From a virus: 64,000 nt of DNA. Of this stretch, positions 20,863 to 47,305 are shown one piece after another. A program made the translations under genes and the position numbers. Under the pieces are notes generated by a model. That model did not search any database, was not told the DNA's origin, and was given only the letters and a program-made list of their open reading frames with translations. Within the stretch, counting starts at the first letter, position 1, and every line of letters starts with the position of its first letter. The stretch lies in IMG/VR virus record IMGVR_UViG_3300023488_000162. One strand, written 5' to 3'.

Positions 20863-20883
20863 GTATCCTGTGTTATATAGTTA
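20863..20883 (-). promoter_or_regulatory. Conserved 21-bp motif, copy A (GTATCCTGTGTTATATAGTTA on +), 13 nt upstream of the ligase ATG
   Basis: One of seven near-identical copies in the window. It directly follows a terminator-like hairpin at 20890-20929. Confidence 0.5.
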
Positions 20884-20931
20884 TAGCTAATAAAGAAAGG
20901 CTTGTCGTTACGAGCAAGCCATTTCTTTCCC

Positions 20932-20952
20932 GTATCCTGTATTATATAGTTA
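20932..20952 (-). promoter_or_regulatory. Conserved 21-bp motif, copy B. Forms a 21-bp inverted repeat with copy C.
   Basis: GTATCCTGTATTATATAGTTA, then a 38-nt spacer, then its exact reverse complement. Confidence 0.45.
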
Positions 20953-20990
20953 AAGAGAGAATTTTAAGCCTCCGGGATGGAGACTTTTTA

Positions 20991-21011
20991 TAACTATATT
21001 ATACAGGATAC
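20991..21011 (+). promoter_or_regulatory. Conserved 21-bp motif, copy C (inverted orientation), just 3' of the helicase gene
   Basis: TAACTATATTATACAGGATAC on the + strand. Confidence 0.45.
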
Positions 21012-21022
21012 TCACATAATTG

Positions 21023-23353
21023 TCAATGCTTTTCTGCAAATTCTTTCCGTAAAAATTCCTTCAGGAACGTCCGCTTGTATGGCACTCTCGAAGTCTTTAC
21101 AGCCCGATCAAGAGCATGAGTTTCGGCGCAAATCACACAATACTTCTTGGCACGAGTGATGGCCGTATAGAGCCATTCTCTCGTCAGCATCAAGTATGCA
21201 GAGTTGTCTATACCAACAATCACATACGGAGCCTCACTGCCCTGCAGTTTATGACAACTCAAAGCATAAGCAAGTTCAAGTGTTGCCCAGATGTTATTCC
21301 CACCAAAGTAATGAGGAATGAAGATCGTTCCCCACTGGTCAAAATCAACCAGAATAAAACTACTCTCAATCTTTCGGATAATGCCACGGTTTCCATTGAA
21401 CACCGGACACTTCTCTTCTTTTTTCTTTGTCTTGAGATTGTATGTGTGAAGCTCATAGTTGTTCTTGTTGATAATGACTTGATCGCCCTCACGCAGAGTA
21501 TACACCCTATCCTTGCCATCACCATAGATTGTGACCTTTGCTTCTGCTTGACCACGACTCGGATTCACAATTTCCTGAATAGCATTATTGACTTCATAAG
21601 TACAGATACTACCACGCAGCTTCTGTGGAAGTACAATCTGAATCTTCGCACTATCATTCCCTACCTTATTATATAAGGTACGGTACTGATTGATAATGTG
21701 GTTGAACGACTCACTTGCGTCCTTATAGATATCAAGTTCCAGATCACGAAGTTCACCACGAACCTCATTGCCAGCCCAGCCATAAGGGACCAACTGTGTA
21801 GCGTTACGAACCTTAATGCTCTCCGTGATAATTGCAGACTTAGCTGCCTGACGATGGATCTTAGTCAAACGAGCCACAGGAACAACCTTAGATGCAAGCA
21901 TATCCTTGAAAATGTTACACATACCGATGCTCTCAAGCTGTCCGTCATCACCAATCATGATGAATCGCTTGCCGGTCTCGATTGCCTGAATCAAGTCATA
22001 GAATAACTGAGCTCCAACCATAGAGGTCTCATCCAGAATGATAATGTCTTCTTCAAGAGGATTGTCCTTGTTATGGATGAAACCACCATTCTCGATGTCG
22101 TAGCCAAGAAGACGGTGAATGGTCTTTCCATCCTGACCAGTAATCTCCTGCATACGAGCTGCGGCACGACCAGAAAGTGCAGTCTGAGCGAAAGACTTGC
22201 CACGAAGAACCTTTAAAACACCAGCGACAACGGTACTTTTACCAGTTCCGCCGTAGCCTGTTAAGATACAGACGTTGCTAGAGCATACCTTTTTAATAGC
22301 ATCTCTTTGCTCCTCAGTATACTCGATGCCAAGCGCATTCCCGGCTTCATTGATTGCAGCATCCATGTTTCGACCAATCGGCTCAACAGGTGCATCCGCC
22401 AGTCGCTTGATTTCCTTTGCGATTTTATCTTCAAGATTCCACACTCTAGTTAAAGCAAATTCCTGACGGTCATCACTCCACCAAAGCGTTTCACGGACAT
22501 CATGTAAATGGAAAAGTGCCCTTTTGATGACTTCTTGATCACCCTCGTTCAAATCAAGTTCCTTAATACAGCTATTGATTGTCTGGTTTGCCGGGATAAT
22601 AGAGTTACCTTCTTCGGCACGAGCGGCAAGAAAGTGCATGACGTAAGCTTCAATTCTGAATTGCGAATTGTGCTTTAAGCCCATATTCAAAGCAAGAGCG
22701 TCAGCTTTTTTCCAGCCGATACCATACGCATCATCGATCAGGACGTAAGGGTTCTCCTCAATTTTTCTTACCAGAGTGTCTGCACCGTGATACTGACGAA
22801 CAAGCTTTTCAATAGCATTGGAAGTCAAACCGTACTCAATCAGTTTCGTGTACGCTTCACTGTTGTCAATGTTGTTTTCAAAAGATTCAATAATCTTTTG
22901 CGCTCGACCTTCCGTAATGCCGCTAACAGTACAAAGAGACTTGACATCACCGTTCTTGACGATTTCATACGGGTTCTCAAATGCTTCATAAAGCAGCTCA
23001 AACTGATGGTCAGTCAAGATAAAACGGAGAAAGCTTTTTTGTTCTTCCGGGTCAGTAATCTCTTGAAACTCATTCATATAGATGATTTTGTACTGATCAC
23101 CAAACTTTTCATGATGAACATACTCACCACAGAACGAATAAGTTTTATTCATATCGAGGCTAGGAACGTTGCCTTTTAGCCGGAGGTCGCTGTATCGGCT
23201 CATGATAGGATTCCCCTGCTTGACTTTTACCACCTCGGCAGAGAAAGTGGCGAAGCCGCCGGGCTCCACCTCCCTCCCATCTTTCGGATAAAAGACTCGT
23301 TTTATCCTGATGTAGCAACGGATCATATTTTCATTAAATTTCTTATCTGCCAC
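21023..23353 (-). CDS. RecD-like / Dda-like SF1 ATP-dependent DNA helicase
   Basis: Walker A GYGGTGKST, Walker B DETSMV, and the C-terminal SF1 motifs KLQGSEAPYVIV and TAITRAKK. Apparent GTG start after AAGAGGG. Confidence 0.75.
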   Translation of the reverse strand: MADKKFNENMIRCYIRIKRVFYPKDGREVEPGGFATFSAEVVKVKQGNPIMSRYSDLRLKGNVPSLDMNKTYSFCGEYVHHEKFGDQYKIIYMNEFQEITDPEEQKSFLRFILTDHQFELLYEAFENPYEIVKNGDVKSLCTVSGITEGRAQKIIESFENNIDNSEAYTKLIEYGLTSNAIEKLVRQYHGADTLVRKIEENPYVLIDDAYGIGWKKADALALNMGLKHNSQFRIEAYVMHFLAARAEEGNSIIPANQTINSCIKELDLNEGDQEVIKRALFHLHDVRETLWWSDDRQEFALTRVWNLEDKIAKEIKRLADAPVEPIGRNMDAAINEAGNALGIEYTEEQRDAIKKVCSSNVCILTGYGGTGKSTVVAGVLKVLRGKSFAQTALSGRAAARMQEITGQDGKTIHRLLGYDIENGGFIHNKDNPLEEDIIILDETSMVGAQLFYDLIQAIETGKRFIMIGDDGQLESIGMCNIFKDMLASKVVPVARLTKIHRQAAKSAIITESIKVRNATQLVPYGWAGNEVRGELRDLELDIYKDASESFNHIINQYRTLYNKVGNDSAKIQIVLPQKLRGSICTYEVNNAIQEIVNPSRGQAEAKVTIYGDGKDRVYTLREGDQVIINKNNYELHTYNLKTKKKEEKCPVFNGNRGIIRKIESSFILVDFDQWGTIFIPHYFGGNNIWATLELAYALSCHKLQGSEAPYVIVGIDNSAYLMLTREWLYTAITRAKKYCVICAETHALDRAVKTSRVPYKRTFLKEFLRKEFAEKH

Positions 23354-23368
23354 TTTACAACCCTCTTA

Positions 23369-23599
23369 TTATGCACCTAATCTAAATTCTGTCAGTCCTC
23401 CGCACACTCTGCAATAAAACCATTTTGTGGTACGCTCGCATTGTTCTGCGCAGTCAAACTTCCACTTCTGAACTTTTCTAACGACGCAACAATTCGTACA
23501 ATGTATCTTAATTACAGTTTTATCTTTGTACCAATCAATTTTAAACATAGGAAGCTCACAAAGAACCTCTCCGTCAATAGTATATAAAATACCATTCAT
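23369..23599 (-). CDS. Small zinc-finger protein
   Basis: Cys pairs CTNCC and CRVCGG. Confidence 0.35.
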   Translation of the reverse strand: MNGILYTIDGEVLCELPMFKIDWYKDKTVIKIHCTNCCVVRKVQKWKFDCAEQCERTTKWFYCRVCGGLTEFRLGA

Positions 23600-26500
23600 T
23601 ACTTTATCTCTCTATCATGCAGCCACTGTTTGTAAGGCTTCATCTTCTCAACAATGTACGAATTTTCTTTTCTCTTGCAAAGGATTGCAAGATCGCTGCC
23701 CTTTGAAATTAGACTTGAATATCGTGCATACTGAGATGCCCAACAAATCATTTCAACAATACCACCTGTCGTGTAAACATGTAAGTATGCAAACTGGTTA
23801 CCACGTTTATCCTTCTTTTTTTGGATGTCTACGATGACACAAATAGCAGTTGCCTCACCGCCATCCTCTACAGTATCAAGACCAGCATCAATATAGGTAC
23901 AAGCATCCTTAATGGGATTGCTAGTCAAGAACATTGAAAGGGTTTCAAATTCCCACATGTGCTCGTCTTGCATATACTTTTCAGCAAACGCCTGCATAAA
24001 GGCATTCCGCTTTTTGTCTTTTTCTTTCTTTCGATTCCATGTGTCCGCTTCCCAGCGCTCCTTTCTTACCTTATTATATAAGGCGAGTCTGGTAGGTTTG
24101 TCTTTAATAGAATCTGTGTCAATTCCGTATTCGTCTTTGAGAATAGAGATCTTGGGGAGAGATGCCATTTCGTGGAAACTCTTCTCTTTATACTCGTTCT
24201 CAAAAACCATATTTGCAAAAGTGATTAAGATTTTTCTCTTGTCCTTTGTTGGAATAGCTCCAGCCTTAATCAACTTGACAACATTTGAAGTGCCAATCTT
24301 GCCACCATTTGCTCTCTGAACAAAGTCTGCCAATCCAGAATATGGACGGTCTGCAATCACCCCTGATACGACACTCTCGCCCATTCCCTTAATGGCTTTC
24401 AAGCCAAACAAAATTGTGTGCTTCTCCGCATCGGCCTTAAATTCCATATCAGACCTGTTAACACTTGGAGGAAGGACCCGAATATGTAGACGGTCACATT
24501 CATTGATGAACACACCCATTTTGCCAGAATCATCTTCTTTAGTAATCATACACGCAGCCATGAAATACTCAGTATAATGAGTCTTCAGGTATGCTGTCAG
24601 GTAAGAAAGAAGCCCATAAGCAACTGCGTGGCCCCGGTTGAAGGAATAAGAAGCCTGTTTCAAGATCAATGCCCACATCTCAGAAATCTGATAATCGTTC
24701 CATCCTTTCTTGTGAAGACCATCTCTAAACTGGACCTCCAAGGATGCCATAACATCTTTCTTTTTCTTGCCAATGGCACGACGAGCATTGTCAACCTCAG
24801 TTTCAGGGAATCCTGCATAACGAAATACTGCCAGAGCCTGTTCCTGATAAAGAAGAATGTACTGAGTCTTGGCAAAAAGCTGTTTGATGTCAGGATGAAG
24901 TAGTTTGATAGTCTCTGGATGAAGCTTATTGGAGCAATACGTCGGGAAGCTGTCCTTAGTGCCAGGGCGGTTTGCTGCATTCACAACAATGATATCCTCG
25001 GCGTTGTCACATTTTGCTTCAACACACATCTTTCGAGCTTCAGCAGACTCCATCTGAAAAATACCAATTGTGTGTCCAGACTTATAAACTGCGTCGTAGA
25101 CTGCCTTGTCATTCAGATCAAGATGGTTGATATCGACATCTTTCCAAGTAAGATGGGCCATCTTTAATGTGTCGTCAATCGTGTCCAAATTTTCAAGACC
25201 AAGAAAATCCATCTTAACTAGAGACAGGTCATCCATAGCATTGTGCATTTCAAGCTGACACATCTGATTACCTTCTCTATCCATACAGAGAGGACAATAT
25301 TCAATAACAGGCTTAGGTGTAATCAAAGTTCCTGCAGCATGGCGACCCATACTCTTCGGTAAACCTTCAAGCCGCATAACGTACTTAAACCACAGAGGGA
25401 ACTTATCATACACATTAGAAAGCTGCTCGCTCTTTCCAAGAATGTCCTTCAATAGAACTTCCTTCTCAACTTCTTCTCCGAGATCATCCAATGTTTTCAC
25501 GGTCGGAATCAACTTAGCAACTTCATTTCGCAATTCATACGGAATCTGCATATAATATGGGCTTTCTGGATCTTCGTTCAGTACCTTGCCAATATCTTTG
25601 ATAGCAACTTTAGTAGACAGAGAATTAAAAGTTGCAATAGGAGCAACACTCTCTTTTCCAAAAAGCTCTTCTGCAATAGAAACAAGTTCTTTGCGACGAC
25701 GACGGCTAATATCAAAGTCGAAGTCTGCGAGACTCTTACGACCTTTATTTGCAAAACGAGAGAAGTCAAGATCCCAACGAACAGAATCAATCTGCGTAAC
25801 GTTTAGCATAAATAGACATAGACAGTTTGCACCAGAACCACGAGAATAGCCACGAGGGATACCTCGTTCATCGGCCACCTTACAAAGCATATACAGCATG
25901 ATGAAATAGTCGATGTAGTCAACATATTCCAAAACGTCAAGCTCCATCTCAATTCTGTCCCGCCGGGTTTGCTGTTCTTCTTTACTCATCCATCCGAATT
26001 TTTCATCGAAAGTAGAATAAACAAGGTAGCGTAGATAATCCAGATGCGAATCAAATTTACCTTCAATTTTCACTTCTGGCATCTGGTTTGGCTGACCAAG
26101 ACCAATATCAATATCGTCAACCATATCTGCAATTTTCACAGACATTGAGCAGCCTTCTCGGATGAAGTCTTCATCAAACTGCTTTGAAAGTGTTCTCAGC
26201 ACATCGTCTTCGGTCTGAAGATAACAGTCAACATAACTTTCTCCAACTTCTCGTCCTTCTCCAATTTCTACAAAAACTGAATGTGCATCAACATCTTCCT
26301 TGGAAAGCATATGAGCATCGGTTGTAATGGTATACGGAAGATTGTACTTTTTAATAAAAGCTGCAATTTTTGCATTAGCTTCAGCCTGATCTGGCGTATC
26401 ATGAGACTGAACTTCCATAAACACGTCATCAAAGATCCATTTCAGTTTGTTCCATAACTGCCATGCCTCAGTCTCGTTTCCATCAACAAGCAATCTACTC

Positions 26501-26943
26501 ATTCGACCAACTTGACAGGCCGTAAGACAGATGATACCTTTACCCCACTCGTTCTGTTCAATGATATTCAAAGAAGTTCGAGGCTTTTTATACATGCCAT
26601 CAACGCAAGCATTTGAAACAACCTTAAATAGATTTTTTAAACCGGTCTCGTTCTTCGCTAATAAAACAAGATGGTAACGAGGTTGTTTATAGTCTTTTGT
26701 GTCAGCTTTTTCGCTTTGATTATCTACTTCGTAGACTTCACAGCCGATGATAGGCTTAATACCTTCTGCTTTACAAACCTTAACTTGGTCAACAAAAGAG
26801 TGCATCTTACCATGGTCTGTAACAGCGATAGCCTTCTGACCATTCTCTTTAGCAAAGTTTACAAGTTCCTTGACTGTAAGAATAGAGTCAAGTAACGAAC
26901 CCTGCGCTGTATGTACATGAAGATTCACAAAATTATCTGGCAT
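23599..26943 (-). CDS. DNA polymerase III alpha-type catalytic subunit (PHP domain + pol core)
   Basis: N-terminal PHP motif NLHVHTAQGSLLDS...AVTDHG and a length of 1114 aa. RBS GGAAGGAGAA. Confidence 0.75.
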   Translation of the reverse strand: MPDNFVNLHVHTAQGSLLDSILTVKELVNFAKENGQKAIAVTDHGKMHSFVDQVKVCKAEGIKPIIGCEVYEVDNQSEKADTKDYKQPRYHLVLLAKNETGLKNLFKVVSNACVDGMYKKPRTSLNIIEQNEWGKGIICLTACQVGRMSRLLVDGNETEAWQLWNKLKWIFDDVFMEVQSHDTPDQAEANAKIAAFIKKYNLPYTITTDAHMLSKEDVDAHSVFVEIGEGREVGESYVDCYLQTEDDVLRTLSKQFDEDFIREGCSMSVKIADMVDDIDIGLGQPNQMPEVKIEGKFDSHLDYLRYLVYSTFDEKFGWMSKEEQQTRRDRIEMELDVLEYVDYIDYFIMLYMLCKVADERGIPRGYSRGSGANCLCLFMLNVTQIDSVRWDLDFSRFANKGRKSLADFDFDISRRRRKELVSIAEELFGKESVAPIATFNSLSTKVAIKDIGKVLNEDPESPYYMQIPYELRNEVAKLIPTVKTLDDLGEEVEKEVLLKDILGKSEQLSNVYDKFPLWFKYVMRLEGLPKSMGRHAAGTLITPKPVIEYCPLCMDREGNQMCQLEMHNAMDDLSLVKMDFLGLENLDTIDDTLKMAHLTWKDVDINHLDLNDKAVYDAVYKSGHTIGIFQMESAEARKMCVEAKCDNAEDIIVVNAANRPGTKDSFPTYCSNKLHPETIKLLHPDIKQLFAKTQYILLYQEQALAVFRYAGFPETEVDNARRAIGKKKKDVMASLEVQFRDGLHKKGWNDYQISEMWALILKQASYSFNRGHAVAYGLLSYLTAYLKTHYTEYFMAACMITKEDDSGKMGVFINECDRLHIRVLPPSVNRSDMEFKADAEKHTILFGLKAIKGMGESVVSGVIADRPYSGLADFVQRANGGKIGTSNVVKLIKAGAIPTKDKRKILITFANMVFENEYKEKSFHEMASLPKISILKDEYGIDTDSIKDKPTRLALYNKVRKERWEADTWNRKKEKDKKRNAFMQAFAEKYMQDEHMWEFETLSMFLTSNPIKDACTYIDAGLDTVEDGGEATAICVIVDIQKKKDKRGNQFAYLHVYTTGGIVEMICWASQYARYSSLISKGSDLAILCKRKENSYIVEKMKPYKQWLHDREIK

Positions 26944-26960
26944 CTATTCTCCTTCCACCA

Positions 26961-27284
26961 TTAAAACTGGTCGCGTTCCTTTAGACGCTTAATCCAGCGC
27001 TTGCGCTTCTCGTTAGCAATCTCATTCGCTTTCGATGTAAACGCCAAGATGCAATCCTCGTCATCATCATAGTATGCGTAGATACAGTTCAGCACATCAC
27101 CGAATTCTTCTACGAGGTTTTCATAAGCCTCGTTAATGCTTACAGGTGTTGGATTCTTCATATCGATTGCACGATAAAACTTTATCGCAGCTTTCGACAG
27201 CTCAGAACCTTCCTCACCCATTTGAATGAGGATTTCCTTGCCATCAATATAATCAAGCACTCGTAAATTTTTATCTTTAATCAT
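26961..27284 (-). CDS. MazG-like nucleotide pyrophosphohydrolase domain protein
   Basis: EExGEL-type motif (MGEEGSELSKAA) and a small helical protein of 107 aa. Confidence 0.45.
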   Translation of the reverse strand: MIKDKNLRVLDYIDGKEILIQMGEEGSELSKAAIKFYRAIDMKNPTPVSINEAYENLVEEFGDVLNCIYAYYDDDEDCILAFTSKANEIANEKRKRWIKRLKERDQF

Positions 27285-27525
27285 CTGTCTGCTCCTTATC
27301 TTCGATGGACACTCTCAAAGTTACAGTCTTACCGTCCTTTGTTGTCCATGTGTATCCACCAAAAGTTCTATTGTTGAACTGAGCTTCAGAAAGAAGCCAA
27401 TCACGAACTGCCTCGATAGCTTCATCTGTGACACGAGTTTTATCTTTCCACTCTGTTCCATTCTTTTTAACAGTTCCTGCGTAAATACCAAACATACCAC
27501 AGCTCACATGATATTCACTCATCAC
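27277..27525 (-). CDS. Hypothetical small protein
   Basis: 82-aa ORF. Confidence 0.3.
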   Translation of the reverse strand: MMSEYHVSCGMFGIYAGTVKKNGTEWKDKTRVTDEAIEAVRDWLLSEAQFNNRTFGGYTWTTKDGKTVTLRVSIEDKEQTDD

Positions 27526-29376: not shown

Positions 29377-29377
29377 A

Positions 29378-35854: not shown

Positions 35855-35875
35855 GTATCCTGTATTACTTAGCTA
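35855..35875 (-). promoter_or_regulatory. Conserved 21-bp motif, copy D (GTATCCTGTATTACTTAGCTA on +), 15 nt upstream of the start at 35839
   Basis: Matches the other copies by sequence. Confidence 0.45.
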
Positions 35876-35885: not shown

Positions 35886-36989
35886 TTACACTCCCCAGTC
35901 ATCCTCTTCCTCGTTTACAGGAGTTGCAGTAGACTTGTTAGAACCACCCCACCAAGAAGTGTCGTTCTCAGCAGCCTTGCCGTCGAAGTCCTTCTTTGCC
36001 TGAGCGTTGGCAGCAATTTTTGCCCGTGCCTCAGAGATATTGTCCTCAGTGTAAGTGGGCTCCGCATCCTTATCACCAGGATTCGGATCAAAGGAATCAG
36101 GATTAACACCCTCGATATACAGCTTGCGAACTGCCGGAGTGCCCTGACGCTTCATCTTGTTAGGACCACCCCAGATATTCTCAGTCTCAACTTCCTCAAC
36201 CTTCTGCTGATTGACGATGGGACCAAAACACTCGAAACTAGTGTAAGGCTTCAGACGCTTACGAATAGAATCAGCCAAAACCTTATTCTGAGTGTTTGCC
36301 TTATAGTCGATGAAAAACTCTGCATCCTCAATGGTGCTGTAGTTCACGATCTTTGCATCGACAACTACTTCATCGTCCTCATCGCTCTTACGGCAACCAG
36401 TGTACACAATGGTCTGAGTGAACAGAGCCAGCTCTTCAAAGCCCTCTGCATCGAAGTCGATTTCCTTAGAACTCAGAGAAACCTGAGTAGGAACAAATCG
36501 AATCTGGTGCTTATCGTTGTAAGTGCTGTACTCGATGTTACCACGGACATACACGTTGTCACCGTCATGCAGATTCTCGGAAATCTCCTTAGCTGCATCA
36601 AAATCGGTCAGAGTCTTGTTATCATTGACGACCTTACCAGACTCATTCGTCTTCTTGGTAACACCGACCTTGACGCCAATCATATCATAGCCTTCCGGTG
36701 CAACATAAGTCAGACGATCCTTCCAAGCAACTTCCTTTTTATCCTTCTCGATGCCCCTGTCCTTATCGGCACGGCGGAAGAAGTAAACCTTATCACGAGG
36801 CATACCAGCCAGATCAACATAGAAAGTGTTTTCATTGGAAGTCTGAACGCCAAAGCTCAGGACACGGCGCATAGCACCACTCTTAGTCTCCTTCTCGTTA
36901 TAGAAGTTACTACGCTGGGTGCCGGTGACCTTACCAGCCATCTCAAAAGAACCACGGGTCTGAGGAAGATTAAAAATTCTATCTGCCAT
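35886..36989 (-). CDS. Putative ssDNA-binding protein
   Basis: Sits next to the Sak4-like ATPase and has an acidic C-terminal tail ending EEEDDWGV (acidic plus aromatic, as in SSB tails). The OB fold is not verified. Confidence 0.35.
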   Translation of the reverse strand: MADRIFNLPQTRGSFEMAGKVTGTQRSNFYNEKETKSGAMRRVLSFGVQTSNENTFYVDLAGMPRDKVYFFRRADKDRGIEKDKKEVAWKDRLTYVAPEGYDMIGVKVGVTKKTNESGKVVNDNKTLTDFDAAKEISENLHDGDNVYVRGNIEYSTYNDKHQIRFVPTQVSLSSKEIDFDAEGFEELALFTQTIVYTGCRKSDEDDEVVVDAKIVNYSTIEDAEFFIDYKANTQNKVLADSIRKRLKPYTSFECFGPIVNQQKVEEVETENIWGGPNKMKRQGTPAVRKLYIEGVNPDSFDPNPGDKDAEPTYTEDNISEARAKIAANAQAKKDFDGKAAENDTSWWGGSNKSTATPVNEEEDDWGV

Positions 36990-37347: not shown

Positions 37348-37363
37348 ACGGCATCACCCCATT

Positions 37364-38240: not shown

Positions 38241-38278
38241 CGTGTCACCTTCTTGTTTGAATTAGCCTTTTATGAGAT

Positions 38279-39808: not shown

Positions 39809-39835
39809 AATGTTTCACCAAACCACCTCCTTTTA

Positions 39836-39856
39836 GTATCCTGTGTTACATAGCTA
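39836..39856 (-). promoter_or_regulatory. Conserved 21-bp motif, copy E (GTATCCTGTGTTACATAGCTA on +), 27 nt upstream of the MTase-like start
   Basis: Immediately follows the tRNA-operon terminator hairpin. Confidence 0.5.
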
Positions 39857-39871
39857 AATCTCCGAAAATGA

Positions 39872-39915
39872 GCGAAAAAATAATATGACGTTGATGCGTC
39901 TATTATTTTTTTCGC
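39872..39915 (-). terminator. AT-rich intrinsic terminator-like hairpin downstream of the tRNA array
   Basis: GCGAAAAAATAATA, a 15-nt loop, then TATTATTTTTTTCGC. On the minus strand it is followed by TCATTTTCGG. Confidence 0.45.
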
Positions 39916-39960
39916 TTATAAAACAAAAATTCTAGCAGATTTTATGTATACCCTATTGGG

Positions 39961-40038
39961 CTGGTGGGACAGGCAAGATTTGAACTCGCGACCAAGCGGT
40001 TATGAGCCGCCAGCTCTGACCAACTGAGCTACTATCCC
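39961..40038 (-). tRNA. tRNA-Met (anticodon CAT; could also be Ile2/lysidine type), CCA encoded
   Basis: Hand fold: acceptor GGGATAG/CTGTCCC, D-arm AGCTCAGTTGG, anticodon loop CTCATAA, T-arm GCGAGTTCAAATCTTGC. Confidence 0.75.
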
Positions 40039-40064
40039 ATGCAAACGCCGATTTTCATCGGCGC

Positions 40065-40136
40065 GATGCCAGCGAAGGAATCGAACCTTATCTCTCGGCG
40101 TTTCCGAGCGCTTTTACCATTAAGCTATCCAGCCGT
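40065..40136 (-). tRNA. tRNA-like sequence, degenerate. Possible pseudo-tRNA or non-canonical tRNA.
   Basis: Clear D-arm (TAGCTTAATGGTAAAAGC) and T-arm (AAGGTTCGATTCCTT), but the acceptor strands are not complementary by hand and the anticodon arm folds as CTCGG-AAACG-CCGAG, a 5-nt loop. Confidence 0.3.
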
Positions 40137-40265
40137 ATACCTCAGAATTTAATTCTCACTATCCAAGCTACGTCGCGTTCCAATATGATCACTCTTGGCA
40201 ACCATGTCGTAACATATAGGCTTCTTTCGGCTCTGAGCAACCGGTGCAGCGTAAGGGGCTGCGTG

Positions 40266-40341
40266 TGGAGCGACTGACGGAGTACGATCCCGCAACATTC
40301 GGAATGGAAAACCGACGCTCTGCCAATTGAACTACAGTCGC
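40266..40341 (-). tRNA. tRNA-Gly (anticodon TCC), CCA encoded
   Basis: Acceptor GCGACTG/CAGTCGC, anticodon loop TTTCCAT, unusual T-loop ATCGTAC closed by G-U pairs. Confidence 0.6.
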
Positions 40342-40443
40342 ATAAGAACCCAACTTACAAAGCACTACTGCACCATCACTGGCGAGCTGGGAATAATAGT
40401 GGTCAAAGGAGTTCAACCATGAACAACAACAATTCATGACCGT

Positions 40444-40527
40444 GGTGCGGATAGTGGGGGTCGAACCCACACGCCTTGCGGCACAGGAACCTAAATCCTG
40501 CGCGTCTGCCAATTCCACCATATCCGC
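40444..40527 (-). tRNA. tRNA-Leu (anticodon TAG), type II with long variable arm, CCA encoded
   Basis: Acceptor GCGGATA/TATCCGC, anticodon stem-loop CAGGA-TTTAGGT-TCCTG, T-arm GTGGGTTCGACCCCCAC. Confidence 0.7.
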
Positions 40528-40532
40528 ATAAA

Positions 40533-40603
40533 TTGCGCCAACAGGGGTCGAACCTGTGATGGAGGAGTCAAAGTCCTCTGCCTTACCGCTTGGCGATGGC
40601 GCA
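40533..40603 (-). tRNA. tRNA-Gln (anticodon TTG)
   Basis: Acceptor TGCGCCA/TGGCGCA, D-arm GCCAAGCGGTAAGGC (Gln-type), anticodon loop CTTTGAC, T-arm ACAGGTTCGACCCCTGT. No CCA encoded. Confidence 0.7.
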
Positions 40604-40691
40604 TCATATACCCCGCTTACTACGCCACATTGCTCTGTTTCCAGAGAGCCGGGAATAATGTGAATGAAAAATTCTACATGCCCTTTCGGGC

Positions 40692-40767
40692 TGGTCCGAG
40701 TGACAGGTCATGATCCTGCGGCCTCATGCTCCCAAAGCACGCGCTCTTCCAACTGAGCTACACCCGG
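40692..40767 (-). tRNA. tRNA-Pro (anticodon TGG), CCA encoded
   Basis: Acceptor CCGGGTG/CACTCGG, D-arm GCTCAGTTGGAAGAGC, anticodon loop TTTGGGA, unusual T-loop ATCATGA. Confidence 0.6.
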
Positions 40768-40774
40768 ATATAAA

Positions 40775-40858
40775 TGCCACCGACGGGATTTGAACCCGTA
40801 CTCTGTTGCCAGAAAGGGATTTTAAGTCCCTCGTGCCTGCCAATTTCACCACGGTGGC
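40775..40858 (-). tRNA. tRNA-Leu (anticodon TAA), type II
   Basis: Acceptor GCCACCG/CGGTGGC, anticodon stem-loop AGGGA-CTTAAAA-TCCCT, long variable arm, T-arm ACGGGTTCAAATCCCGT. Confidence 0.7.
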
Positions 40859-40863
40859 TTATA

Positions 40864-40945
40864 TGCCCAAAATGGGATTCGAACCCATACGCTTTCGCAG
40901 AGTTGTTTGAGAACTCCATGTCTGCCTACATTCCATCATTTGGGC
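40864..40945 (-). tRNA. tRNA-Leu (anticodon CAA), type II
   Basis: Acceptor GCCCAAA/TTTGGGC, anticodon stem-loop GAGTT-CTCAAAC-AACTC, variable arm TGCGAAAGCGT, T-arm ATGGGTTCGAATCCCAT. Confidence 0.65.
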
Positions 40946-41012
40946 TTATATCGCCGGTCTTTCCCGGCTGTCAGCCCCGCGCAGGGCATTTCGGAGGAAG
41001 AAAATATCTTAG

Positions 41013-43223
41013 TTATTCGTGCCGATTCTCATAGAATTCATTCCGTAACTGAATAATACCCTTCTTGCAAAAAGATTCCTGGTCTTTCTCTCGTTGCTCA
41101 CGCATCCAACCATAGAACAGGTTATCCTCAGCAGTAAACAACTTTGCGGTATTTTCATAATAGCCACGCTTCTGAACGCTCTGCATAACACCACGCAAGA
41201 ACTTCCAGTGCTTATAATAAGGAAGCTTCATCTTAAACATGAAATTGTTGCTATCTCGCAAAACAAAACCTTCAACGTGTTCAAAGCCATGATGCAGATA
41301 GTTCTCGTTCATGACTTTCTCGTACCAAGGATAGAATTCACTCCAGCTCTCAAAGATTTTAACCTTCTCCTTAATCTGCAAATGACACTTTTCAGCAACA
41401 CGCTTCAGATCATCGAAATCCATCACACTGAAGTTCATATCATTCGCAACAATATCCAGCAAAACAATGTGCGGTTTCTTGTATTCGATGATATGAGCAT
41501 CATTTACAGGATCAATCACCTCAAAAATAATGGAACCATTCTCTTTTGCAACTTCCTTCAGATTCTTACGGTCTTCATCAGAAGTCGTATCCATGAGAAT
41601 CTTTCGGAACATATCTGCAAAAGGCCCTTCAGGAGTGGATTTACTTGCAATGAACAGACCATCCTGTTCTGCATCATACGAGACAATGCCAAGAAATCCG
41701 TTTTCCTTCAGATATGCAGTCACCGGGAACTTCAAAGTGTTCTGTAGGTTTCCAATTCTCGTTTCATTCCGCTCATCGACCGCAAAGAACTTATCATAGC
41801 TTCGAGCTACAATCTTATTCGTCTTTGTGTTAATGAACAATCCCCTTGCTTTGGTAGAAACCTCATCCCAGTGCTTCTTATAAAATGCTTCACGAGAGAA
41901 GTTGAAAGAAGAAATATCTCCGAATCGCTTCTCAAACACATATTTGCTTTGACGCATCTTACTGACAAGTTCTGCGTTATCGAACTCAGTTTTCATTTCA
42001 ACGGCAGTTTCAGTCTTTGGCTCCTCTTTTCGGAACACATCATTCTTTGTTTCTACACATTTGATTGACTGACCATGTTCAAGTTCCACGCAACGGAGAT
42101 ATCCACCAAACTCGATTTTTCCTTCGAGGTTGTAGCACCGATGCCCCATATCAATAGGAACATCCTGCACATTTCGATGACCGAAGATCTGAATGTAGCT
42201 ATCTGGCATCGATTTTTCCCAAGACTCAGCCACGGTTAGCATATCAGGATAGCGACCTACACCTTTAATCATCTGGTCAGCAGATACAGAAGGAAGAAAA
42301 TAAGGCAGATAACTCAAACCACCGTGGCTCACGAAATACCGCTTCCCATCATACTCAAAGTAGGCACATTGGCCAACTCTGGAATAGATCTTACGAGCAG
42401 TGTTCTTATCAATACCGGCTTTAAAGAGCTGCGGACGAGTGTAGTTTGCAAACTCTTCACTCTGAACCGGTTCATCATGCCCCCACTTGTTCAGCCAACG
42501 CTCGTGATTCCCTTCCAAAAGGATCACATTCTTGCGGTTGTTGTTTACAACATCACACAAGAACTTGAATACCTCAACGTTTTCAATGCCACGATCAAGA
42601 TAATCACCAACGAAGATATAAAGTTCGTCGTCCTTCATCTCACCAAGGTATTCACTTAAACAAGTATAACAGCCATGAACATCACCGATGACATGAATCT
42701 TCTTCCACTGGTTGAAGTCATTCGGACAGTAGTTCAAATCGGACATCACATCCGTAGTAGAAGGAAGAACTGTCACGCCAGAAGGAACTTTTTGAGTAGC
42801 AAACCGAGCGTACATCTTATCAATAGCCGCTTCAGGAACTCGCTTCAGCCATTCTCTCTGAGCGTTTCTTCGTTTGCATTCCTCGATCGGAAGGTCCGTC
42901 ATGTTAATAACATACATCCGATAACGATACTGTTTTGCAAGATTCTTATAACGATTCATTTCGACCGTCTTGGAATTCGTTGCATCAATCACGGTAAACT
43001 CGCCATGACTCATACGCACCTCAAGCAGTTTGAAAAGCATCTCCCATACAACATCATCATTCTGCGGAGAAATCTCCATCTGCCCAGCAGGTGTTTCCTG
43101 TGCGCTCTGGCACATAAGGCGAAGTGTATCAGCACTCAATACGTACTGCTCAAGATTATGCTCTTTAATATAGGTGGACTTCCCGCATCCGGGTGCTCCA
43201 CGGAAAAGAAGCAAAGTTCTCAT
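41013..43223 (-). CDS. Pnkp-like RNA repair enzyme: polynucleotide 5'-kinase + metallophosphoesterase (2',3'-phosphatase type) + ligase-like nucleotidyltransferase domain
   Basis: N-terminal P-loop FRGAPGCGKST. Central calcineurin-like motifs GDVHGC, GDYLDRG and GNHE. C-terminal covalent-nucleotidyltransferase motifs YLKENGF (I, KxNG), IIFEVID (III), VEGFVLRD (IV) and FKMKLPYYK (V, KxK). Confidence 0.65.
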   Translation of the reverse strand: MRTLLLFRGAPGCGKSTYIKEHNLEQYVLSADTLRLMCQSAQETPAGQMEISPQNDDVVWEMLFKLLEVRMSHGEFTVIDATNSKTVEMNRYKNLAKQYRYRMYVINMTDLPIEECKRRNAQREWLKRVPEAAIDKMYARFATQKVPSGVTVLPSTTDVMSDLNYCPNDFNQWKKIHVIGDVHGCYTCLSEYLGEMKDDELYIFVGDYLDRGIENVEVFKFLCDVVNNNRKNVILLEGNHERWLNKWGHDEPVQSEEFANYTRPQLFKAGIDKNTARKIYSRVGQCAYFEYDGKRYFVSHGGLSYLPYFLPSVSADQMIKGVGRYPDMLTVAESWEKSMPDSYIQIFGHRNVQDVPIDMGHRCYNLEGKIEFGGYLRCVELEHGQSIKCVETKNDVFRKEEPKTETAVEMKTEFDNAELVSKMRQSKYVFEKRFGDISSFNFSREAFYKKHWDEVSTKARGLFINTKTNKIVARSYDKFFAVDERNETRIGNLQNTLKFPVTAYLKENGFLGIVSYDAEQDGLFIASKSTPEGPFADMFRKILMDTTSDEDRKNLKEVAKENGSIIFEVIDPVNDAHIIEYKKPHIVLLDIVANDMNFSVMDFDDLKRVAEKCHLQIKEKVKIFESWSEFYPWYEKVMNENYLHHGFEHVEGFVLRDSNNFMFKMKLPYYKHWKFLRGVMQSVQKRGYYENTAKLFTAEDNLFYGWMREQREKDQESFCKKGIIQLRNEFYENRHE

Positions 43224-43293
43224 TACTTTCTCTCCTTTTACTTAACGCATTATCGTTATTTATTCATTTCCAATTCTTCATAAAATGTCTATT

Positions 43294-43677
43294 TTAGTTC
43301 AACTCTTCCAGCTTCTTCATCAGCTGGTCTACGTCCATATCTTCCAGCTCCTTGTCCTTCTTCTTTGCCACAATCTTCATAATCTTATCGCGCTGCGCCT
43401 TCTTCTCGGCTGCATCCACACGAGCCTCAGATTCAGCCAGCTTGACAGACACGATATACTTGACCAGCTCAATCTTGTTTGCCAGTTCGGTATCTTCGGC
43501 ACTCTTAACAGCCAGCAAGGAGTCTTCGTCTGCGGTCTTCTTCTGACGATTCAGGGTCTTAAAAATCGCATCTAGTGCCTCGACACTCAGATCCCACAGA
43601 TCTTCAACAGTCATAATACCCTTATAGTTGAAGCGATAGCGATTACGGGTTGCAATTTCAAACAGATTCTTTTCCAT
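43294..43677 (-). CDS. Hypothetical helical protein
   Basis: 127-aa ORF with a Lys/Glu-rich C-terminus. Confidence 0.35.
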   Translation of the reverse strand: MEKNLFEIATRNRYRFNYKGIMTVEDLWDLSVEALDAIFKTLNRQKKTADEDSLLAVKSAEDTELANKIELVKYIVSVKLAESEARVDAAEKKAQRDKIMKIVAKKKDKELEDMDVDQLMKKLEELN

Positions 43678-43691
43678 AATAATTTCTCCTC

Positions 43692-45770
43692 TTAAATAAC
43701 AACTTTCAGAACCCGCTCAGTAGCGCCCTGAACCTTGACAACAAAGGAATCATGTTTCGTCTCAGAGAACCCAACGCCGGACAGCTGGTCATCTACCGAC
43801 TGAACTGCCATCTGAGAACCAAGAGCCTCAAATACTCGCTTATGCTGTAACAGTTCCGCCTTCAGGAATTCATTGTAGAAGCCATTGGGCTTTTCAGGGT
43901 TAACACAATCCTTGAGCATGAAGAAGTAGTGACGGTTGCCATTACCAGTCTGTTCATCCCAGTAGTTCGGAGAGTACATCACAACAGACACAGGCACGAA
44001 CTGATTGGAATTTACACCCCAGATCTCGCGGGTGCTAGTAGAACTGGGCAGCAGCTCCTTGATAGAGAATTTGCCATCCTTCAGCGTGACTTTTGCCACG
44101 GCGACATTCTGACCCTGATGCAGCGGCTTATCATAGTTAAACGAGTAGATGTTGCCATCAAATTCGATTTCAGCACGGAAACCAGTTTTACCACCACGAT
44201 TAGCGTAGCAGTTTACATAGAAGCTGTACTCGCCCTCCTTCATCTTTTTGATGTCAGGCCAGGTGATATTCTCGACCGCAGCTTTCCCCTGATTAGGACA
44301 ACGGATATCAACATCTAGGCGGCCATCAGTACGAGGATTCCACTTATCGCCATAATAGATATGATTCTTATCAGGTTCAATGCAATGAGCATCCTCATCG
44401 TTTTCATCCCATTCACCCGACACATCGTTCCACTGGATCGAGAAACGCAGCACACCATCCACCTTGCCGCCAGCAGCCTTAACGTTTTCGCGAATATCGC
44501 TGTCTGTCATATTACCTGTATACGCCCAACTGAAACCATTAGGCCACTTGAACATGCTCGGCGCACTCTTATCCTGCGGTGCAATCAAAGACATCATATT
44601 CTTCTCAAAACGATTCTCCATGAACAGTTCTAAGCCAGTCGCAGTCGGAAGAACATCCCTGATGAATTTATCGATACCGATTTCTTCTGCACGGCCAAAC
44701 TTCTTCGGATCAATCGCAACAGTCTTAGCCATTGCCTCAAACGGATTCACAGCGCCCATCACACGAGGGGCAGCATCACGGTTGCAGAACATGATGTTGT
44801 TGATAGTAACATCATCCAGAGTGGCGAACCGACGACCCAGACTGCTCATATAGCCAAGTTCGGTGACAGTCTTCTTTGCATCTTCCAACATCTTCTTGGT
44901 AAAAATCGCCTTGGGACGCTTATAGTTTGCAGGAGCAACAACTTTCTCGAAAGCAGTAACGGCTGCATCCACGTTCATACCCTCACTCAGATTTACCAGC
45001 AAAGTACCGATAGCGGTGTTACGGATACGAAGCTGTCCTATATCGCTCCACGCCGGTGCCAACCAAACATATGCGGCCTTGTTCTCAGTCGGAGTATTGT
45101 CGTATTCGATTTTGTTAGTCTTGAATACCTTGACGGCGTTTTCAAATTCCTTACCACGATACAGACTATTCTGTGCAATCAGCTCCAGAACAGTATCAAC
45201 AGCATCCATGGTCAGTTCTTCCAGAGAACGCTTATATACGTTTGCGGAATCACGCCACTGAGCCATCTTGGTAGCAACGTCATCAGGCCGCACAATGAAA
45301 CGCTGCGGAATCTTGACTGCGAAATGGTCCCAAGTATGCACATCCTTGTGATTTTCATCGTACTCGTAGTTCATCTCGGTGCCGAACATATCGCCAGAAC
45401 CAATCATATTGCGACTGACAAAGTACGGATTCACAATAGTGCGGCTCTTCACATAAGCATCCATGGCGTCCACAACAGGCTGATACTTGACAGACTTTGC
45501 ATCAAAATCCCACACAGTAATCATTTTTCCATCATCAAACGCTACTAGCTTGCCGATATTCTTCACGAAACGGCGGCAGCAGGAACAGTCATACTCGCGC
45601 CGTTTACGGAACAACTCATTCGTGCCAGCCGGGAAGCTGTCGAGATACAGATTGTACAGTTCATCCTCGTCTGCATCGGTGATAAACAGAGGGTTTTCGC
45701 CCTTCACCATCTCATTGAAGTGGTCTTGCAGCAGTGCACGAAATTTCTTGAAATCAGACATTGTTATCAT
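43692..45770 (-). CDS. Large hypothetical protein (692 aa), unknown function
   Basis: Long ORF with a GGAG-type RBS, preceded by motif copy F. Contains a CSCCRRF motif. No family recognised by eye. Confidence 0.45.
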   Translation of the reverse strand: MITMSDFKKFRALLQDHFNEMVKGENPLFITDADEDELYNLYLDSFPAGTNELFRKRREYDCSCCRRFVKNIGKLVAFDDGKMITVWDFDAKSVKYQPVVDAMDAYVKSRTIVNPYFVSRNMIGSGDMFGTEMNYEYDENHKDVHTWDHFAVKIPQRFIVRPDDVATKMAQWRDSANVYKRSLEELTMDAVDTVLELIAQNSLYRGKEFENAVKVFKTNKIEYDNTPTENKAAYVWLAPAWSDIGQLRIRNTAIGTLLVNLSEGMNVDAAVTAFEKVVAPANYKRPKAIFTKKMLEDAKKTVTELGYMSSLGRRFATLDDVTINNIMFCNRDAAPRVMGAVNPFEAMAKTVAIDPKKFGRAEEIGIDKFIRDVLPTATGLELFMENRFEKNMMSLIAPQDKSAPSMFKWPNGFSWAYTGNMTDSDIRENVKAAGGKVDGVLRFSIQWNDVSGEWDENDEDAHCIEPDKNHIYYGDKWNPRTDGRLDVDIRCPNQGKAAVENITWPDIKKMKEGEYSFYVNCYANRGGKTGFRAEIEFDGNIYSFNYDKPLHQGQNVAVAKVTLKDGKFSIKELLPSSTSTREIWGVNSNQFVPVSVVMYSPNYWDEQTGNGNRHYFFMLKDCVNPEKPNGFYNEFLKAELLQHKRVFEALGSQMAVQSVDDQLSGVGFSETKHDSFVVKVQGATERVLKVVI

Positions 45771-45793
45771 TCTCCATTCAAATAGTATTTTAT

Positions 45794-45814
45794 GTATCCT
45801 GTGTTATATAGTTA
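45794..45814 (-). promoter_or_regulatory. Conserved 21-bp motif, copy F (GTATCCTGTGTTATATAGTTA on +), 23 nt upstream of the 692-aa gene start
   Basis: Lies between the terminator hairpin at 45830-45843 and the gene start. Confidence 0.5.
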
Positions 45815-45827
45815 CAATGTTAAAATC

Positions 45828-45861
45828 AAGGGGCCGAAGCCCCCTGTTTTTAATTTTTGTG
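45828..45861. terminator. Bidirectional intrinsic terminator-like hairpin (GGGGC-CGAA-GCCCC flanked by T-tracts)
   Basis: + strand AAGGGGCCGAAGCCCCTGTTTTTAATTTTTG. The minus strand has TTGATTTTA after the stem. Located 3' of the 45850..46776 gene. Confidence 0.55.
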
Positions 45862-46776
45862 GAAGTATTCGATCCAGCCCTTGTATCCTTGCCGGAAACT
45901 AATGTAGGCAACCTTGCTGCACTTTCTTCCGATAATGTCCGCAAGAGGATCTTTACCATTTCCGAAACTAAGTTCTGCAAGATTAAATTCTGGATGAGTT
46001 TTACAGTAGTTATAAACCTTGACATACTCGCCGTTTCTGGTCAGATGTCTTCGATCTAAAGCCTTTGAATGATATCTTCTTTCGAGAATATCATTCAAGC
46101 GCGTGAAATAACTATGAATTGTGTTTGTAGACATTCTTGAATCACTGTCTGCACCAGTTCTATCCTCTGTTTTGCGAAGGATGTAATCACCATTTATGAC
46201 ATAAAACGTTCTGTATCCACCCATATTTGGAGCATCGTATTGTTTCATTTCATAACACTGCTTGATGATATTCATCAATCTCGCGTCAACACCGGTCTTA
46301 TTCAAAACAGTACGTGATTCAAAGTCAACATCGTTAATCGTCAGATTAGAAACTTCTTCAGAAGTAAGGCCAATCCAGTACAGCGCAGCAATCACATTCA
46401 TACGAATCTGATATGGTTCTTCATACTTATCCAAGAAATCAACAAACTCATCAACTGACGCAAAATACTTGTCCTCGTACATATTGTCTGAACTCACATC
46501 GCTTTCCGAGAATTCAGCTAAGTCATACATGCTCGCTCGATCCTCACTTTTGATGTACCCTGTAATTATCGACTTTACATTTCTGAACGACCGACTTGAG
46601 TTCACCCAATTGTATTTAGCAAACATCTTTACAAAATCATCTTTTGTAAAGTCAAACAACTCATACCCATGTTCAGCCTCATAGTCCATAACGTGACGCA
46701 GTGTCGATATAACAAACTCACCGCTTCTATCAGAATACTTTTCGGCAAAAGCTTTGATTTTTTCTTCAGTAAGCAT
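45850..46776 (-). CDS. Hypothetical protein with weak resemblance to the tyrosine-recombinase fold (catalytic residues not confirmed)
   Basis: ALYWIGLTSEEVSNLTINDVD resembles the box-I region, but Thr sits where the Arg is expected. HSYFTRL is a possible box II. Confidence 0.25.
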   Translation of the reverse strand: MLTEEKIKAFAEKYSDRSGEFVISTLRHVMDYEAEHGYELFDFTKDDFVKMFAKYNWVNSSRSFRNVKSIITGYIKSEDRASMYDLAEFSESDVSSDNMYEDKYFASVDEFVDFLDKYEEPYQIRMNVIAALYWIGLTSEEVSNLTINDVDFESRTVLNKTGVDARLMNIIKQCYEMKQYDAPNMGGYRTFYVINGDYILRKTEDRTGADSDSRMSTNTIHSYFTRLNDILERRYHSKALDRRHLTRNGEYVKVYNYCKTHPEFNLAELSFGNGKDPLADIIGRKCSKVAYISFRQGYKGWIEYFHKN

Positions 46777-46827
46777 AGTGGCACACTCCTTCTTATTATG
46801 TAGTGTACCATTAAACCTGAGAACAAA

Positions 46828-47247
46828 TCAAGCAAATGCGGCAAAATTCTGAAAATCTATAGTATGTTGTACGCCACTCAGGAACGCTGCGAGCAAAAAC
46901 GGTTCATCCTTGCATCTTGCCATTGCGATCATATTCATCTGACACTCCGACAAGACACCAAGTTTCTTGATGAACTGTCCTTTGTTAAGTGTATCAGTCT
47001 CTTCGCAGAGAACGATACTATCAACCTCTAGGAACTCACAGTCTTCCTTTGAGAGTAGAACATGAACCGGAGAACGCTTATACGTTCTTGAAGATAACGG
47101 ATTCCCCTTGATTGTTGGGCTGAAGAGGTTACGCTTGTTGTTACTTGTCACAACGAACGGTCGAATGCCGCGCTGCTGATGACCTGTCGCATTGGATAGA
47201 TCAACCAACCAAACCTCTCCGACCTTTGGGTCAATATTGTTATCCAT
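46828..47247 (-). CDS. PemK/Kid/MazF-family type II toxin (mRNA interferase endoribonuclease)
   Basis: VGEVWLVDLSNATGHQQRGIRPFVVTS closely parallels Kid/PemK GEIWLVSLDPTAGHEQQGTRPVLIVT, and the downstream core is conserved. Start set at the MDNNID Met, 7 nt after AGAGGAGA. Confidence 0.7.
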   Translation of the reverse strand: MDNNIDPKVGEVWLVDLSNATGHQQRGIRPFVVTSNNKRNLFSPTIKGNPLSSRTYKRSPVHVLLSKEDCEFLEVDSIVLCEETDTLNKGQFIKKLGVLSECQMNMIAMARCKDEPFLLAAFLSGVQHTIDFQNFAAFA

Positions 47248-47284
47248 AGTCATTCTCCTCTACAATGATGTAGCTCCGTTCCAT

Positions 47285-47305
47285 AGCTACATTATACAGG
47301 ATACA
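47285..47305 (+). promoter_or_regulatory. Conserved 21-bp motif, copy G (inverted orientation), between the 121-aa gene and the PemK-like toxin gene
   Basis: TAGCTACATTATACAGGATAC on the + strand. Confidence 0.4.

Follow-up and report, generated by a model that had tools for sequence, protein, structure and literature searches.

In a 64,000-nucleotide stretch of virus DNA (IMG/VR record IMGVR_UViG_3300023488_000162; the window hereafter), we analysed a 21-bp element that occurs in seven intergenic copies, designated A to G. The element is probably the operator box of a putative repressor of the SroF/MrpR type, a 308-aa protein whose gene lies between copies F and G. This assignment is based on the anatomy and conservation of the sites, the homology and predicted fold of the protein, the parallel with the Bacillus phage SPbeta, and one case in which box and repressor have changed together. 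Operator-repressor pairs of this kind are known from Bacillus phages, and the gut-phage system described here most likely adds a member.

The degenerate 21-mer GTATCCTGTRTTAYWTAGYTA had five exact matches on the + strand of the window, at 20863, 20932, 35855, 39836 and 45794. Allowing up to three mismatches added exactly two sites, both on the - strand, at 20991-21011 (one mismatch to the degenerate consensus) and 47284-47304 (two mismatches). No match to the 21-bp motif was obtained in 100 dinucleotide shuffles of the window. When the window was scanned with a weight matrix, all seven copies scored above 31 bits and no site fell between 10 and 31 bits, indicating that the seven boxes form a discrete family. 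The consensus box GTATCCTGTRTWAYWTAGYTA is thus present in exactly seven copies in the 64-kb window, as compared with none expected; these are spread over 26.5 kb, every one of them is intergenic, and they are restricted to the early and replication region. We regard the motif as real: it is conserved and is not expected by chance. An earlier reading made without database searches (the sequence-only reading) had listed seven copies, five on the + strand and two inverted, and the search, the shuffles and the weight matrix bear this out, with copy G starting at 47284 rather than at 47285. It had also described B and C as a perfect inverted repeat with a 38-nt spacer; the spacer is as described, and the two copies match at 20 of 21 positions, differing (T versus A) at box position 12.

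All credible genes of the window lie on the - strand, according to an open reading frame (ORF) analysis accompanied by a computation of GC skew. Read in gene sense, the copies fall into two classes: C and G have the form GTATCCTG-TATAAT-(A/G)TAG(T/C)TA, and A, B, D, E and F have the opposite form TA(A/G)CTAnnTAA(C/T)ACAGGATAC. No TTGAC[AT]-17-TATAAT site other than C and G was found in the window. In promoter scans they agreed with the sigma-A/70 consensus at 12 of 12 (C) and 11 of 12 (G) positions, with other promoter-like matches at background level. Both are host-type promoters close to the consensus and oriented with the genes, and not antisense promoters, as had been suggested for the inverted copies. 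Among 34 distinct versions of site G, the -35 element and the box were unchanged, and the intervening 9 nt took 25 forms. A box that is invariant beside freely varying nucleotides must therefore be selected for something beyond sigma recognition.

The other five copies showed no -35 element in either direction and do not have the sigma-A/70 layout. Their would-be -10 hexamer varies (TATAAC, TGTAAC, AGTAAT, TCTAAT, TATGAC, TACATT), and in several of them the important A at -11 or T at -7 is missing on both strands. The sequence-only reading had favoured these five copies as promoters with a TATATAAC -10-like element; the missing -35, the variable hexamer and the lack of a sigma factor, RNA polymerase or YonO-like gene among the genes of the window speak against this. 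Ahead of these copies lies a terminator hairpin (A, E and F) or a stop codon (D), and behind them the next ribosome-binding site, at a distance of 1-5 nt from A, D and E. The hairpins claimed for A, E and F were found before each of them, with a T-run, and no terminator hairpin precedes D. Of the distances of 13-27 nt to the start codons given previously, that of A holds (13 nt) and that of F does not: the gene downstream of F, encoding 692 aa, most likely starts at its second ATG (45761), since the first ATG is absent in relatives, and with this start copy F lies about 32 nt upstream.

The candidate repressor was compared with known proteins by sequence and by predicted structure. With the Pfam family MrpR_N_CB the window protein scored 21 bits and a 79%-identical homologue exceeded the cutoff with 27.7 bits; MrpR_C_cat is on record for most homologues. 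A BLASTP alignment with YopR was colinear over 273 residues, with 19% identity and an E value of 0.002. When a profile of the close family was searched against 1.84 billion representative proteins, 72 proteins of about 290-350 aa were obtained, several of which match YopR directly (1.7e-23, 1.5e-10 and 5e-7). An hhalign comparison of a remote-member profile with YopR gave 98% probability (E 1.6e-13), and the same comparison with a shallow alignment was uninformative. The first AlphaFold2 model, made with a shallow alignment, had a mean predicted local distance difference test score (pLDDT) of 63.7, yet SroF already ranked at the top; a deeper alignment raised the pLDDT to 88.7. In a Foldseek search of the Protein Data Bank (PDB), the top seven matches were phi3T SroF, the SroF-Sar complex and YopR/MrpR (E 8e-8 to 9e-7), the best being DNA-bound phi3T SroF with a template modelling (TM) score of 0.62 and an E value of 8e-8. 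XerA, Cre, lambda Int and Tn1549 Int followed at 1.7e-3 or worse, four orders of magnitude behind. In a HMMER alignment with Tn1549 Int, the catalytic Arg-I is aligned to Thr138, which is invariant in 18 homologues, and no conserved Arg, His or Lys column was found among 38 family members. The H244-x-x-R247 stretch of the window protein is not preserved in the 36%-identical protein P0079, which was found only on a 1.3-kb contig and not in viral or metagenome contigs; the repressor itself is present on hundreds of contigs. These comparisons and the model indicate that the 308-aa protein belongs to the SroF/YopR/MrpR family, with an integrase (CB + CAT) fold.

The operator of MrpR (YopR/SroF), the master repressor of SPbeta, is the SPbeta repeated element (SPBRE), which MrpR was shown to bind at ten intergenic sites by chromatin affinity purification sequencing (ChAP-seq), electrophoretic mobility shift assays (EMSA) and reporters (PMC10516654). 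MrpR is monomeric and has a tyrosine-recombinase fold with no recombinase function (PMC10516654; PDB 8A0A, 8BJ6, 8BPZ). The SroF protein of phi3T was crystallised as a monomer on a 26-bp asymmetric box, Phi3TRE, of which it reads 24 of 26 bp (bioRxiv 10.1101/2025.11.27.690993; PDB 9RD5, 9RGL); SroF sites are scattered genome-wide, and the antirepressor is Sar (bioRxiv 10.1101/2025.11.27.690993). In the SPbeta record, we found that SPBRE overlaps TAGACA-17-TATAAT promoters at yorE, yorM, yorZ, yosX and yonP and lies 1-5 nt before the ribosome-binding site at yopM, yopV and yonX, and copies are present at the operon ending in the repressor gene and at the yonP-yonO operon. The gut phages resemble SPbeta, a phage of about 135 kb, in the YorF-YorL replication module and the YonO polymerase (the latter found in relatives of the window), in a long asymmetric box with about ten dispersed intergenic copies in the early/replication region, and in boxes that overlap host-type promoters or abut ribosome-binding sites. 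Both have a box at the repressor's own operon and before the yonO operon or the YonO-like gene, and an integrase-fold repressor of about 310-325 aa. They differ in that the boxes are unrelated (ACAAATACAAAaAATATGTATA in SPbeta, GTATCCTGTRTWAYWTAGYTA in the gut phage) and that the SPbeta boxes have one orientation and lie over the -35 to -10 spacer, whereas the promoter copies of the gut phage are inverted and cover -20 to +1. In addition, most gut-phage boxes follow terminators; the gut-phage repressor is only about 19% identical and is encoded behind a PemK-like gene, not in a yopM-R operon; the host is a gut bacterium, not Bacillus; and no arbitrium genes were seen in the scanned part of the window. 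With phi3T SroF, the best structural match of the window protein, the system shares a long non-palindromic box, which SroF reads at nearly every base. In contrast to Phi3TRE, the gut-phage box is 21 bp long and not rich in A-tracts, and neither a Sar-like antirepressor nor a LexA box was identified.

Scanning IMG/VR for the core of the box gave at least 119 listed loci with at least 182 box copies, nearly all of these loci being from 80-140 kb human-gut contigs; the search of genome and relatives that had been proposed earlier thus recovers the same sites throughout a group of related loci. Among the matches listed, 65 copies are in gene sense, of which 43 contain TATAAT and 17 TATTAT, with a conserved TTGACA 17 nt upstream, and 111 copies are in the opposite orientation (TGTTAT, TATTAT, TGTTAC, TATTAC and others) with no -35. 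Clustering of the listed loci by their flanks recovered sites A/B/C, D, E, F and G, with at least nine site families in all; an extra family consists of a promoter-box, a hairpin, an opposite box and a ribosome-binding site, with a spacer of 38-40 nt. Promoter G with its box is present in 85 of the 85 loci carrying the repressor gene, and so is the box after the repressor terminator. All close relatives of the repressor (at least 74% identical) share the same box. A box also stands before the gene of a 927-aa protein in 10 of 10 loci, about 16 nt ahead of its ribosome-binding site. This protein, encoded at 5577-8360 of locus L034 and at nine other loci, is a homologue of SPbeta YonO (BLASTP 2e-22; Pfam RdRP). 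Because the gene lies at about 60-74 kb in contigs of the same orientation, a YonO-like gene may adjoin the right end of the window. A scan of 185,579 genomes for the box yielded single chance matches only, none related to the window, and the SPbeta sequence contains no stretch similar to it. Megablast matched only unannotated fecal contigs and no annotated close relative, and a tblastn search of a phage collection with the repressor gave no match.

To the repressor gene is linked a PemK/MazF-like gene, which lies directly upstream of it in all four lineages examined, namely the window and the remote lineages L365, L366 and L367; no antitoxin gene was identified beside the PemK-like gene. The three remote lineages keep the order PemK, repressor, then YorF, YorG, YorH and DnaB, and further on PolIII. 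In L366 we found a different box, TAAGCACACAAACACT, in three copies as compared with 0.13 expected, and none of 200 shuffles reached three. One copy is found in the start region of the PemK-gene promoter (TTGACT-18-TAAAAT), another behind the terminator of the repressor gene and the third in front of YorF. In L365 the repressor terminator is followed by two tandem copies of a box that is different again, with no further copies established, and L367 showed no box above chance. Inverted boxes picked by eye at the PemK promoters of L365 and L367 were dropped, as they did not rise above the shuffle null.

From these features we infer that the protein would bind the box, repress transcription and, at some of the sites, act as a roadblock. 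The repressor, with a tyrosine-recombinase fold and presumably without recombination, would be clamped as a monomer round a long, non-palindromic and dispersed box. Since such binding would be monomeric and asymmetric, either orientation should work, and the 21 bp would be kept base by base. In the sigma-A-type promoters C and G, the region from about -20 to +1 is taken up by the box, so that the bound repressor would exclude the host RNA polymerase. Site G is a putative self-regulation site because the box supplies the -10 of the PemK/repressor operon promoter, and would confer negative self-regulation on this operon; site C would gate the ligase gene and the genes downstream. At A, B, D, E and F, and before the YonO-like gene of the relatives, the bound repressor may block read-through into the next lytic module or, alternatively, occlude weak promoters that are not recognisable by sequence. 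An operator for a phage regulator was one of three options in the sequence-only reading, and the evidence favours it, as a putative function, over a recognition site for a phage sigma factor or RNA polymerase. The inverted pair had further been proposed as a regulator-binding palindrome; a regulator probably does bind there, but a palindrome is not needed, as the known relatives of this regulator bind as monomers to asymmetric boxes. If this assignment is true, a control logic characterised so far (2023-2025) only in SPbeta-like phages of Bacillus would run a widespread lineage of gut phages; the box sequence would be new, the repressor gene would always be linked to a PemK-like toxin gene, and box orientation would divide cleanly according to site type. 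The boxes would also map the regulatory nodes, i.e. the repressor operon, the YonO polymerase gene, the replication modules and the ligase/nucleotide-metabolism block, and the protein-box pair would be testable in vitro without culturing the host.

Several points weigh against the operator assignment. The roadblock or insulator role is its weakest step and a guess, because five boxes with no recognisable promoter follow terminators, and the clean split of orientation by site class is not required by simple occlusion. Box and repressor change together in one lineage only (L366), and variation of the box is paralleled by the PemK-like gene no less than by the repressor gene. The window protein lies below the Pfam cutoff for MrpR_N_CB and resembles YopR only distantly in sequence (19%); the hhalign result is circular in part, since YopR-like members had been admitted to the profile at E values of about 1e-4 to 1e-6. 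The only hints of lysogeny are a second integrase gene and homologues on contigs of 0.2-1 Mb, and a temperate lifestyle is inferred. LexA boxes (GAAC-N4-GTTC) occur at chance level and inside genes, and the scanned part of the window (about 12.5-56.7 kb) gave no AimR-like Pfam match and no arbitrium module.

We consider it unlikely that the gene-directed copies, TA[AG]CTA..TAA[CT]ACAGGATAC plus ribosome-binding site, are instead promoters of a phage polymerase such as a YonO-like enzyme, with the opposite copies C and G letting the polymerase or its factor shut the host-type promoters. The element does resemble promoters of T7/SP6-type polymerases, which are asymmetric elements of about 20 bp recurring before genes and often after terminators, and length and asymmetry are features of single-subunit polymerase promoters. 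Five of the seven copies face the next gene, follow terminators and abut ribosome-binding sites, leaving no space for another promoter; the gene of the YonO homologue in relatives is itself preceded by a box; and the promoter sequence of YonO is still unknown (PMC5467207). However, YonO of SPbeta uses a single promoter and serves 37 late genes only, the early and replication genes being independent of it (PMC5467207), whereas the motif is confined to the early/replication region. Moreover, 2 of the 7 window copies, and 65 of 182 copies among the matches listed, point against the genes, those in the window coinciding with host-type promoters, and the window encodes no such polymerase and no sigma factor. 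The equivalently placed boxes of SPbeta are proven repressor sites (PMC10516654), and in L366 a host-type promoter has a box at its +1 position, oriented like the others. Quite unlikely, in our view, is a dual function, in which the box would be a host-type promoter core one way and a YonO-type polymerase promoter the other, and occupancy by polymerase or repressor would shift expression away from the PemK/repressor operon and towards the replication modules. Alternatively, the copies might be plain promoter cores of host type, in part bidirectional, that serve no phage factor of their own; this accords with the near-consensus sequences of C and G and with the -10 hexamers of the two strands, which are offset by one base, a geometry described for symmetric bidirectional promoters. 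It is nevertheless highly improbable, given that GTATCCTG and TAG(C/T)TA are invariant with no known sigma-A need beside a freely varying spacer, and that five copies have no -35 and several no -11 A or -7 T.

An element acting in RNA, whether as a conserved 5' leader affecting translation or stability, as a cleavage site of the PemK/MazF-like protein, or as a 21-bp stem of B and C that is formed in read-through transcripts and cut by RNase III, would account for the copies immediately upstream of ribosome-binding sites and for the constant linkage of the PemK-like gene; B and C could pair over 20 of 21 bp, and in one site family of the relatives the transcript of a host-type promoter would begin exactly where a copy begins. 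We regard such a role as very unlikely, since C and G, lying within promoters, would not be transcribed from them yet keep the full 21 bp, and a single-stranded RNA site is not expected in both orientations. Pairing alone demands no shared 21-mer either, because each hairpin-forming pair would be free to use its own sequence. Enzymes of the MazF family read 3-7 nt, not 21 nt. Recombination sites for a tyrosine-recombinase-like protein, for example bounding an invertible 1.5-kb G-F segment, might be suspected from the inverted repeats G and F that flank an integrase-fold gene, and from a second gene (53937-54806) with a full Phage_integrase domain. This appears extremely unlikely: all 27 of the related loci spanning G-F are colinear and none is inverted, so that inversion of the segment, for which both orientations should be seen, was rejected, and recombination between copies in direct orientation, for instance A and F, would remove 25 kb of essential genes. 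The box also has no internal dyad of the core-site type; the candidate protein has Thr138 at the position aligned with Arg-I, and no Arg, His or Lys column is conserved in its wider family. An operator bound by the 308-aa repressor remains the reading that we prefer.

Table 1. Positions of the boxes and associated features in the window (positions count from the first nucleotide of the window).
Feature	Position	Strand	Description
Box A	20863-20883	+	Gene sense TAACTATATAACACAGGATAC; 13 nt upstream of ligase ATG; directly after hairpin t2, touches ribosome-binding site; conserved in 25 relatives
B-A spacer with hairpin t2	20884-20931	-	GGCTTG...CAAGCC, extended by AAAGAAA/TTTCTTT; -16.6 kcal/mol
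Box B	20932-20952	+	Gene sense TAACTATATAATACAGGATAC; 20/21 inverted repeat with box C, 38 nt apart
Hairpin t1	20968-20984	-	GTCTCC-ATCCC-GGAGGC, between C and B; begins about 8 nt into the predicted promoter-C transcript
Box C	20991-21011	-	Gene sense GTATCCTG-TATAAT-ATAGTTA; -10 at 20998-21003; covers about -20 to +1
Promoter C -35 TTGACA	21021-21026	-	17 nt upstream of TATAAT; conserved in relatives
Box D	35855-35875	+	Gene sense TAGCTAAGTAATACAGGATAC; between stop codon of YorF-like gene and ribosome-binding site of 97-aa gene
Box E	39836-39856	+	Gene sense TAGCTATGTAACACAGGATAC; 4 nt before ribosome-binding site of C5-methyltransferase gene
Box F	45794-45814	+	Gene sense TAACTATATAACACAGGATAC; directly after terminator (45829-45845) of PemK/repressor operon
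Candidate repressor gene	45850-46776	-	308 aa; predicted integrase fold, SroF/YopR/MrpR family
PemK/MazF-like gene	46828-47253	-	First gene of promoter-G operon
Box G	47284-47304	-	Gene sense GTATCCTG-TATAAT-GTAGCTA; -10 at 47291-47296 of PemK/repressor operon promoter
Promoter G -35 TTGACT	47314-47319	-	17 nt upstream of TATAAT; invariant in relatives
Paralogous small-gene runs	4139-4943 and 61979-62690	-	

Between promoter C and the ribosome-binding site of the ligase gene lie, in this order, hairpin t1, box B, hairpin t2 and box A. Hairpin t2 is terminator-like on both strands. The stem of t1 shows a compensatory change in one relative, L121 (gtctct...agaggc), and the + strand offers it the better T-run. 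Transcription from promoter C may end at t2 and so give a short RNA of about 115 nt (20884-21011), a possible small RNA. The TGA stop codon of the RecD2-like helicase gene falls within the -35 hexamer of promoter C. A near-consensus TTGACT-16-TATAAT was also found at 47710-47737 on the - strand, upstream of a 121-aa gene (47339-47704), and carries no box. Box D is followed by the 97-aa gene and then by the YorG (Sak4)-like gene, and box E follows a long terminator hairpin (39871-39916) that closes a tRNA cluster.

In some relatives, a divergent box pair with copies 38 nt apart brackets TTGAAT-17-TATAAT (L049 3951-4030, L034 1855-1934), and the start of this promoter is the first base of the right-hand box. 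Its product may be a non-coding RNA, as no convincing ORF or Rfam family was found directly downstream of the pair. The A/B/C intergenic region and the 3' end of the helicase gene are about 96% identical to relatives and the ligase gene 85%, which marks a mosaic junction (20850-21022). We rejected the idea that this intergenic region is unusually conserved, as its 96% compares with 95.5% for the adjacent helicase gene and only the ligase is more diverged. Box F is kept in relatives at the same place regardless of the gene that follows (45794-45850), which may be the 692-aa gene, Pnkp or others. Shared boxes may act as recombination break-points between phages.

The window encodes an ATP-dependent ligase, a RecD2 helicase, the alpha subunit of DNA polymerase III (PolIII), a RecJ-like protein, a primase, a DnaB-like helicase and an AAA_24/Sak4-like protein, together with ThyX, NrdD, a C5-methyltransferase, a Pnkp/RNA ligase and the tRNA cluster. 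The gene order YorF, AAA_24/YorG, DnaB/YorI, primase, RecJ/YorK and PolIII-alpha/YorL is that of SPbeta yorF-yorG-yorI-yorJ-yorK-yorL. Homologues of the gene at 35886-36989 carry PF27337 (YorF), and remote relatives carry YorH; the 120-140 kb genomes of the lineage fit an SPbeta-like affiliation. Judging from its genes, the phage belongs to an SPbeta-like lineage of uncultured human-gut phages.

The 692-aa protein (43692-45770, - strand) corresponds to phrog_1735 and Pfam DUF8224, with no function assigned. It is 35-53% identical to proteins of Ackermannviridae, Bacillus phage BCP78, phiCbK-like and other lytic phages, and its gene adjoins the Pnkp/RNA-ligase gene here and in at least one of those phages. 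Two GenBank records alone label this family as RNA polymerase; we rejected the 692-aa gene as a polymerase gene, since its product had no Pfam-polymerase, NCBIfam or PDB sequence match and did not resemble YonO. Seven tRNA genes (Met, Gly, Leu x3, Gln and Pro) are located at 39962-40945 on the - strand, between the Pnkp/RNA-ligase gene and box E, with one more borderline Rfam match to a tRNA at 40067-40133; the Rfam scan found tRNAs only.

The second tyrosine-recombinase gene, at 53937-54806 on the - strand, encodes a full Phage_integrase domain (60 bits); its product may be a genuine integrase, which would hint at a temperate lifestyle. Next to it is the gene of a DUF6291/DnaB_2 protein, and a Bro-N antirepressor-like gene (55360-56661) lies upstream. 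The paralogous runs of small genes comprise three Cys-rich ORFs of 76-110 aa starting with MAIKII or MATKIV and three ORFs with MWDL. TnpB/Cas12f-like genes of the IS605 family are inserted in two related contigs (L356 12936-14225 and L367 508-1620).

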